This document shows, one piece after another, positions 27,437 to 28,109 of a DNA stretch of 64,000 nt (within the stretch, counting starts at the first letter, position 1; the number at the start of each line of letters is the position of its first letter). The position numbers were made by a program, and so were the translations under genes. This stretch comes from Escherichia coli. Its GTDB lineage: Bacteria > Pseudomonadota > Gammaproteobacteria > Enterobacterales > Enterobacteriaceae. The notes under the pieces were generated by a model. The model searched no databases, was not told the DNA's origin, and saw only the letters and a list, made by a program, of their open reading frames with translations. The stretch lies in NCBI RefSeq assembly GCF_003334385.1, contig NZ_QOWN01000013.1; one strand, given 5' to 3'.

Positions 27437-27521
27437 GGTGGGGTTCCCGAGCGGCCAAAGGGAGCAGACTGTAAATCTGCCGTCATCGACTTCGAAGGTT
27501 CGAATCCTTCCCCCACCACCA
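27437..27521 (+). tRNA. tyrT: tRNA-Tyr (anticodon GUA), copy 1
   Basis: 85-nt sequence GGTGGGGTTCCCGAGCGGCCAAAGGGAGCAGACTGTAAATCTGCCGTCATCGACTTCGAAGGTTCGAATCCTTCCCCCACCACCA with encoded CCA end and long variable arm. Confidence 0.95.
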
Positions 27522-27730
27522 TAATTCACCACAGCGATGTGGTAACTTCGGTGAGATTGTGAAAGTTTGCACTCATCGGGGAAGGGTGAGAACCTTCGAC
27601 TAAGGTTCGATTCGAGCGAAAGCGAGAGAACGTTGCCACAGGCAACGGCCCGAAGGGTGAGGAGCGAAGCGACGAATAATCCTTCCCCCACCACCATCTC
27701 AAGCATTACCTCAAAATTTGAATTACCCCT

Positions 27731-27815
27731 GGTGGGGTTCCCGAGCGGCCAAAGGGAGCAGACTGTAAATCTGCCGTCATCGACTTCGAAGGTTCGAATC
27801 CTTCCCCCACCACCA
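27731..27815 (+). tRNA. tyrV: tRNA-Tyr (GUA), copy 2
   Basis: Identical 85-nt sequence to copy 1. Confidence 0.95.
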
Positions 27816-28024
27816 TAATTCACCACAGCGATGTGGTAACTTCGGTGAGATTGTGAAAGTTTGCACTCATCGGGGAAGGGTGAGAACCTTCGACTAAGGT
27901 TCGATTCGAGCGAAAGCGAGAGAACGTTGCCACAGGCAACGGCCCGAAGGGTGAGGAGCGAAGCGACGAATAATCCTTCCCCCACCACCATCTCAAGCAT
28001 TACCTCAAAATTTGAATTACCCCT

Positions 28025-28109
28025 GGTGGGGTTCCCGAGCGGCCAAAGGGAGCAGACTGTAAATCTGCCGTCATCGACTTCGAAGGTTCGAATCCTTCCC
28101 CCACCACCA
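28025..28109 (+). tRNA. tRNA-Tyr (GUA), copy 3
   Basis: Identical 85-nt sequence to copies 1 and 2. Confidence 0.95.

Follow-up and report, generated by a model that had tools for sequence, protein, structure and literature searches.

The 64,000-nt window analyzed here, which corresponds to positions 1-64000 of the 116,568-nt draft WGS contig QOWN01000013.1 (GCA_003334385.1), carries three tandem tRNA-Tyr genes at the tyrT-tyrV locus of a natural close relative of Escherichia coli K-12. On balance, we favor the view that the third tRNA-spacer unit is an assembly artefact, most likely absent from the organism, whose locus would then be the ordinary tyrT-tyrV-rtT operon. This preference is based on the nested repeats of the locus, on a second anomaly in the 178-bp repeats that follow the tRNA genes, and on the presence of the same pair of anomalies in a batch of laboratory-strain assemblies that is contradicted by other assemblies.

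Organization of the array and its surroundings

ARAGORN detected exactly three tRNA-Tyr(GTA) genes in the window, all on the + strand and the sole tRNAs of the 64 kb. The first copy, at the tyrT position (27437-27521, with an encoded CCA end), has the K-12 tyrT/tyrV sequence and is followed by a 209-bp spacer (27522-27730, +), which is the same as the K-12 spacer, contains an RtT element at 27565-27696 (RF00391, 132.9 bits), and terminates in 19 nt that duplicate the 3' end of the tRNA. The second copy (27731-27815) is the only one with a spacer at both sides, a configuration missing from K-12; the spacer downstream of it (27816-28024, +; RtT element at 27859-27990 by Rfam) is identical to the first. 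The third copy, at the tyrV position (28025-28109), is bordered by the 178-bp repeats. Rfam also recovered each of the three copies (RF00005; 53.4 bits, gathering score 29), and they are tRNA-Tyr(GUA) genes of the tyrT/tyrV type, which have a CCACCA 3' end and whose 85 nt recur unchanged in the loci of MG1655, DH1, and DH5alpha. All three anticodons are GTA, which rules out a supF/su3 suppressor allele.

The original prediction described three identical tandem genes organized as two perfect 294-bp units, each a tRNA gene plus a 209-bp spacer, and a final tRNA. ARAGORN, Rfam, TRF, and sequence identity all bear this out: the three genes, each of 85 nt, are mutually identical, as are the two spacers, and identity at period 294 is perfect over 27436-28110, with a 381-nt block that occurs twice. 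This match is far above chance expectation. TRF reported 2.9 copies of period 294, followed by 3.1 copies of period 178 at 28091-28649, in keeping with the ∼3.14 copies of the 178-bp repeat that canonically lie 3' of the last tRNA. These repeats, R1 (28110-28287), R2 (28288-28465), and R3 (28466-28643), all on the + strand, each contain an RtT element (134-137 bits), so that, with the two elements of the spacers, Rfam lists five RF00391 matches in total (132.9-137.5 bits; gathering score, 45).

In MG1655, the locus reads tRNA-209 bp-tRNA followed by three 178-bp units, and the same array is present in DH1, DH5alpha, and the XL1-Blue assembly CP132550, which confirms the earlier claim that K-12 has two tRNA genes here. 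From this canonical state of two tRNA-Tyr genes 209 bp apart, the window deviates by having three genes and two spacers. The two loci share the position between purU and narI, the promoter, the tRNA, the 209-bp spacer, R1, and R3, base for base, and they differ in that the window has exactly one more 294-bp tRNA-spacer unit and a second R3 in place of R2. The K-12 178-bp units are three distinct variants, 8 to 9 positions apart; the R2 of the window is an exact copy of R3, whereas that of MG1655, DH1, and DH5alpha is distinct and differs at 9 positions, which are unit positions 14, 18, 22, 29, 57, 83, 92, 95, and 101. This second difference from K-12 was absent from the original prediction.

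The surroundings are those of the tyrT-tyrV operon, with the gene order rssB, rssA, ychJ, and purU, then the array, then narI, narJ, narH, and narG. As assembled, purU and narI lie 1,549 bp apart, a distance that two copies would shorten to 1,255 bp. The upstream neighbor purU, which encodes formyltetrahydrofolate deformylase (26435-27277, +, mapped from the RefSeq annotation of homologous loci), carries R77H in the window, and a search for the identical protein led to QOWN01000013.1. On the other side, narI (28827-29504, -, by annotation mapping) is, by SNP analysis, of the common and widely occurring V204 allele and not of the K-12 I204 allele. A terminator-like site downstream of narI, consisting of a hairpin and a T-run (28787-28808, -), was found by the terminator scan and bounds the locus.

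It is established that tyrT and tyrV are cotranscribed from the tyrT promoter (PMC2887954). The promoter scan located this strong sigma-70 promoter at 27359-27386 on the + strand, with a -35 element TTTACA, a 16-nt spacer, and a TG-extended -10 element TATGAT (10 of 12 matches). As read from the sequence, the GC-rich stretch GCGCCCCGC comes directly after the -10 element (27387-27395, +); from established knowledge of tyrT, we take it to be the stringent-control discriminator. The same scan of the locus found no promoter-like site in the two spacers. Since the only promoter lies before the first tRNA and the spacers offer none, the three tRNAs and five RtT elements, as assembled, are predicted to be one transcription unit with a single tyrT promoter, in agreement with the original prediction, which placed the extra copy under this promoter.

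Copy number of the locus in E. coli

We surveyed 5,426 complete E. coli genomes with a contiguous spacer-tRNA-spacer query and an E-value limit of 1e-200, which only a full-length match can pass. The segment was found in 13 genomes, 12 of which are true three-copy genomes; MB51 passed the filter but contains only two tRNAs and was rejected. Four of the 12 are K-12 laboratory strains (Origami2-DE3, XL1-Blue CP081007, XL10-Gold, and TOP10), and the others are GF124.3, GF4, EcPF16, ET474, CH4784, H10407, its duplicate SEC470, and O157:H7 F1273. Three copies at tyrTV are thus rare (12/5,426, or 0.2%), which disposes of the possibility, raised in the original prediction, that three is the common state. 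The three-copy state itself is already known, being present in public genomes such as H10407.

The number of tRNA-Tyr-like genes per genome has a median of 3 and a mean of 2.9 (range, 1 to 7; 5,426 genomes), and where loci were inspected, genomes with three such genes had two of them at tyrTV. The third gene is presumably tyrU, and the usual state is therefore two copies at tyrTV. Other apparent signs of copy number change did not hold. Extra spacer heads, seen at 2,076 places in 1,920 genomes, proved for the most part to reflect RtT units amplified within a single spacer and not extra tRNAs, and PG20180054, with two tRNA-Tyr genes in total, was considered as a one-copy contraction at tyrTV, where it has two copies. 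The locus is nevertheless plastic across genomes, with 1 to 5 RtT units in the spacer, 1 to 9 downstream, and 1 to 3 tRNAs. Res13-Lact-PEB21-38-A has five RtT units (909 bp) between its two tRNAs and nine units downstream, and 23CRST047 has three tRNAs separated by spacers of 559 and 105 bp, a form seen in one strain pair; in a near relative there is a single tRNA.

Seven natural loci, those of the enterotoxigenic strain H10407, GF4, CH4784, EcPF16, ET474, GF124.3, and O157:H7 F1273, share with the window the tRNA-209-tRNA-209-tRNA arrangement, the perfect units, and the one promoter, whereas their spacer alleles, their flanking haplotypes, and the number of their downstream repeats (1 to 4) differ from those of the window. 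In particular, H10407 retains a distinct R2 and the canonical R1-R2-R3 order, whereas the window has R1-R3-R3. The R1-R3-R3 state is itself rare, since only 12 of the 5,426 genomes match this segment at ≥99.8%, and the identity of R2 and R3 looks like the outcome of gene conversion or of a de Bruijn bulge collapse.

Tandem identical tRNAs of varying number are also known from the glyV-X-Y array of E. coli, with three or four copies (PMC4539685), and tRNA dosage in Pseudomonas fluorescens SBW25 evolves by duplication (PMC7661048). These cases are species-wide fixed arrays or experimentally selected duplications of at least tens of kilobases, unlike the window, where the unit measures 294 bp and there is no evidence of selection.

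Assembly and recombination as possible origins of the third unit

The repeat structure of the locus is such that a short-read assembly could reach the three-copy state from a two-copy genome. For k ≤86, every k-mer of the window locus also occurs in the canonical two-copy K-12 locus, and k must reach 89 before one is specific to the extra unit; this 89-mer starts at 27729 and consists of the tRNA with the last 2 nt of the spacer before it and the first 2 nt of the spacer after it. Conversely, the canonical k-mers lost from the window locus are R2-specific only, so that exactly the R2-specific sequence is missing and R3 is present twice. Up to k=86, the graph of the two-copy locus thus admits the window locus as an alternative walk; in this graph, the tRNA is an 87-nt repeat node and the spacer a loop. 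Nine sites distinguish R2 from R3, between identical stretches of 90 and 79 nt, and the two units therefore form equal-length parallel edges for k ≤80. We propose, as the probable origin of the third unit, that a short-read de Bruijn-graph assembler resolved this nested repeat wrongly and miscounted the loop: the R2 and R3 edges would have been merged as a "bulge," giving R1-R3-R3, and the tRNA-spacer loop would have been walked twice instead of once, the number of units then being set by a loop-count heuristic. The absence of new short k-mers permits this scenario without proving it, as a duplication by homologous recombination also yields no new short k-mers.

The behavior of related assemblies is in line with such an error. 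The contig of the window is a draft that begins inside a multicopy prophage gene, and the array interrupts the other assemblies of its lineage, none of which yields a tRNA count; such breaks are typical of short-read assemblies. Logan contigs stop at window position 27466, inside the first tRNA (SRR7819145), and begin at 28616, in the R3 tail (SRR3657339). A third contig, DABAMG010000057.1 (GCA_012504395.1), reads the first tRNA and the first spacer and ends at 27728, 2 bases before the second tRNA. This stop counts against an artefact and for a real third copy, because it is expected if the spacer precedes both tRNA-spacer and tRNA-R1, as it does with three copies, which suggests a genuine fork.

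The laboratory strains provide a parallel. K-12 genomes with three copies amount to only four assemblies with close accessions between CP080620 and CP084529, namely, CP080620 (TOP10), CP081007 (XL1-Blue), CP081008 (XL10-Gold), and CP084529 (Origami2-DE3). As to the three tRNAs, their locus is exactly that of the window, from which they differ in having K-12 flanking alleles, whereas the window, from a natural relative, starts in a prophage and shows ∼18 SNPs over 38 kb. Three of the four, Origami2-DE3, XL1-Blue CP081007, and TOP10, combine the three tRNAs with R1-R3-R3, as does the window; XL10-Gold, the exception, has the three tRNAs and a 178-bp repeat array truncated by a rearrangement. The overlap between the three-copy and the R1-R3-R3 genomes consists of these three assemblies (hypergeometric p = 4e-6), all from one batch, and its confinement to a single batch points to a pipeline effect and not to a biological one.

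This batch is contradicted by independent assemblies of identical or sister strains. XL1-Blue, XL10-Gold, and TOP10 possess two DH1-lineage alleles that flank the array, a stop in rssB and a stop in narG. Of 52 genomes with the rssB stop, only XL1-Blue CP081007, XL10-Gold, and TOP10 are three-copy, and DH1, DH5alpha, and XL1-Blue CP132550, all of the rssB-stop/narG-stop haplotype and inspected directly, have two tRNAs and R1-R2-R3. The two XL1-Blue assemblies, CP081007 and CP132550, agree throughout the 12,077 nt compared upstream and the 5,690 nt compared downstream (17.8 kb), and their sole differences are the 294-bp unit and nine R2 positions. DHB4, of the Origami lineage, and DH10B, a sibling of TOP10, are both in the survey collection and appear in neither the list of three-copy genomes nor that of R1-R3-R3 genomes. 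Independent double events in several recA laboratory strains are not credible, and the three-copy state of the batch was almost certainly produced by the assembly procedure; the error proposed for the window would be the same as in these four K-12 assemblies. The R1-R3-R3 state also depends on the assembly elsewhere, since a single J53 assembly out of several shows it, as does only part of the isogenic PG2018 mouse-gut K-12 clones, and the assemblies within the J53 and PG2018 series disagree at R2 only.

The flanking alleles call for some additional remarks. The rssB-stop allele, at the equivalent of window position 24390, is carried by 52 genomes that include DH1, DH5alpha, S17-1, and XL1-Blue, and the narG stop, at the equivalent of 32726, is annotated in six inspected loci; the window is wild type at both positions. 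The assembly labeled "TOP10" (CP080620) carries the rssB stop, and DH10B is not among the 52 carriers. In XL10-Gold (locus positions 5767-5940), a breakpoint right after the first RtT unit joins the array to tRNA-Cys, tRNA-Leu, and yecA. In EcPF16 (locus positions 5767-5854), a breakpoint also lies right after the first RtT unit, where a truncated narX is joined and narI to narK are deleted. RtT repeats may act as sites of recombination or of assembly breaks.

Despite these parallels, a real third copy, arising by recent unequal crossover between sister chromosomes or by replication slippage, is in our view only somewhat less likely than an artefact. The first tRNA copy would have paired with the second through their 87 nt of identity, yielding a three-copy chromosome and a reciprocal one-copy chromosome; the three tRNAs and five RtT elements would be transcribed together from the tyrT promoter, under stringent control, and then be separated by processing; and the change of R2 to R3 would be a separate gene conversion or an assembly flaw of another kind. 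As this origin predicts, the units match perfectly and no foreign sequence lies at their junction, although the same is expected of an artefact.

Better support comes from other strains. The architecture is found in the 12 complete genomes on at least four upstream (2.7 kb) haplotypes, each of which has two-copy relatives. The two spacers are identical within each three-copy genome, and between lineages they show 0, 1, or 6 mismatches to the window; identity within genomes combined with differences between lineages implies independent recent events. O157:H7 F1273 is three-copy, and a single spacer was found in 10 of 10 O157:H7-type genomes of a 60-row sample. Moreover, one-, two-, and three-tRNA alleles exist in the population, a plasticity that suits real expansion, and tandem repeats are more often collapsed or broken by assemblers than expanded, which speaks against an artefact. 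So does the existence of real three-copy arrays such as that of H10407, with its canonical downstream repeats, in what we take to be a finished Sanger-era genome. The su3/supF doublet genetics of Russell et al. (1970) reportedly established unequal recombination at this locus. Together, the spacer and flank patterns fit sporadic, recent one-unit expansions in other strains, probably by unequal exchange between the 87-nt tRNA blocks.

For the window itself, several observations weigh against such an event. The rare pair of three tRNAs and R1-R3-R3 is shared with the contradicted batch, and it is improbable that two independent rare events coincided in both the lineage of the window and that batch; by reasoning only, we found no simple one-step recombination route to both the extra unit and the change of R2 to R3. 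The contig is a draft whose ldr tandem array also departs from the K-12 copy number. Finally, 2 of the 9 natural three-copy genomes, GF4 and GF124.3, come from one study, a hint that the state may depend on the pipeline. The recent unequal crossover put forward in the original prediction thus stands as a mechanism operating in other strains, as judged from their spacers and flanks; here, the assembly artefact that the same prediction named as an alternative is at least as likely, given the draft contig, the signature of the contradicted batch, and the lack of diagnostic k-mers below 87-89 nt.

Two further accounts of the three copies appear very improbable. The first holds that they are not a recent event in this strain but a stably inherited allele of a clade related to K-12, acquired by descent or by recombination, for instance, from the H10407 group. 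H10407, GF4, and CH4784 nearly share an upstream haplotype and a spacer allele and are all three-copy, so the state can persist. However, the window spacer is the K-12 allele, from which the H10407 spacer is one mismatch away; the window flanks are K-12-like, differing over 2.7 kb at 2 sites from K-12 and at 9 from H10407; tRNA numbers of one or two are seen in its close relatives on the nar side; and HS and MB51, which have the H10407 haplotype, have two. The second account, for which we see equally little chance, is that a real third copy is one case of recurrent, selectively favored tRNA-Tyr amplification, with the nested repeats serving as a dosage switch; the benefit of the amplification could be the buffering of tRNA-Tyr depletion by defense nucleases or, equally, translational demand; the PtuAB effector of retron-Eco7 does degrade tRNA-Tyr (PMC11555353), but nothing in our analysis supports a link of the array to tRNA-Tyr-targeting defense systems, which is speculative.

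Consequences and the source lineage

Were the third unit real, each transcript would contain one more tRNA-Tyr1 gene product and one more RtT element, a modest rise in dosage, and the window would add one further copy-number variant of a tRNA operon long known for its instability, with little biological weight. The practical value of the case concerns data quality, as the copy numbers and unit variants of tyrT-rtT are not constant across assemblies of one strain (XL1-Blue, J53, and the PG2018 series). In view of this disagreement, tRNA-Tyr and RtT counts taken from short-read or graph-based assemblies need to be checked with reads of at least 89 nt.

Contig positions 23435-30277 match the window exactly, from window position 23435 on. 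A literature search for the assembly and run accessions found no paper that cites them. Between positions 3600 and 43400, the window shows ∼18 substitutions relative to all K-12 genomes, and no complete genome among the 5,426 has them as a set. Of the 14 coding substitutions, nine are nonsynonymous, three of them in oppA, and some represent the common E. coli allele, K-12 being derived (narI V204). One window-specific substitution, at 20465, falls in a frameshifted IS4-family transposase pseudogene (19737-20633) located between adhE and tdk, as in K-12. The ∼18 private SNPs gave rise to the idea of a mutagenized or mutator laboratory derivative of K-12, which we reject because narI V204 and narG A255 are common natural alleles, because the purU variant is present in other isolates, and because the prophage at the start of the window is absent from that place in K-12. 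The source organism is a natural close relative of K-12, distant from it by ∼18 SNPs in 38 kb.

The window starts inside the exonuclease gene of a lambdoid prophage, which is multicopy in many genomes, and the ∼3 kb at 1-3000 are not at that place in MG1655, with which collinearity begins at 3001, in yciC. The ldr region (44658-45693) is a further tandem array whose state varies from one assembly to another; the window has two 535-bp units against three in MG1655 (ldrA, ldrB, and ldrC), a deviation that could be natural variation. The three Ldr proteins are all identical in the Origami2 and TOP10 assemblies, whereas ldrB is different in MG1655.
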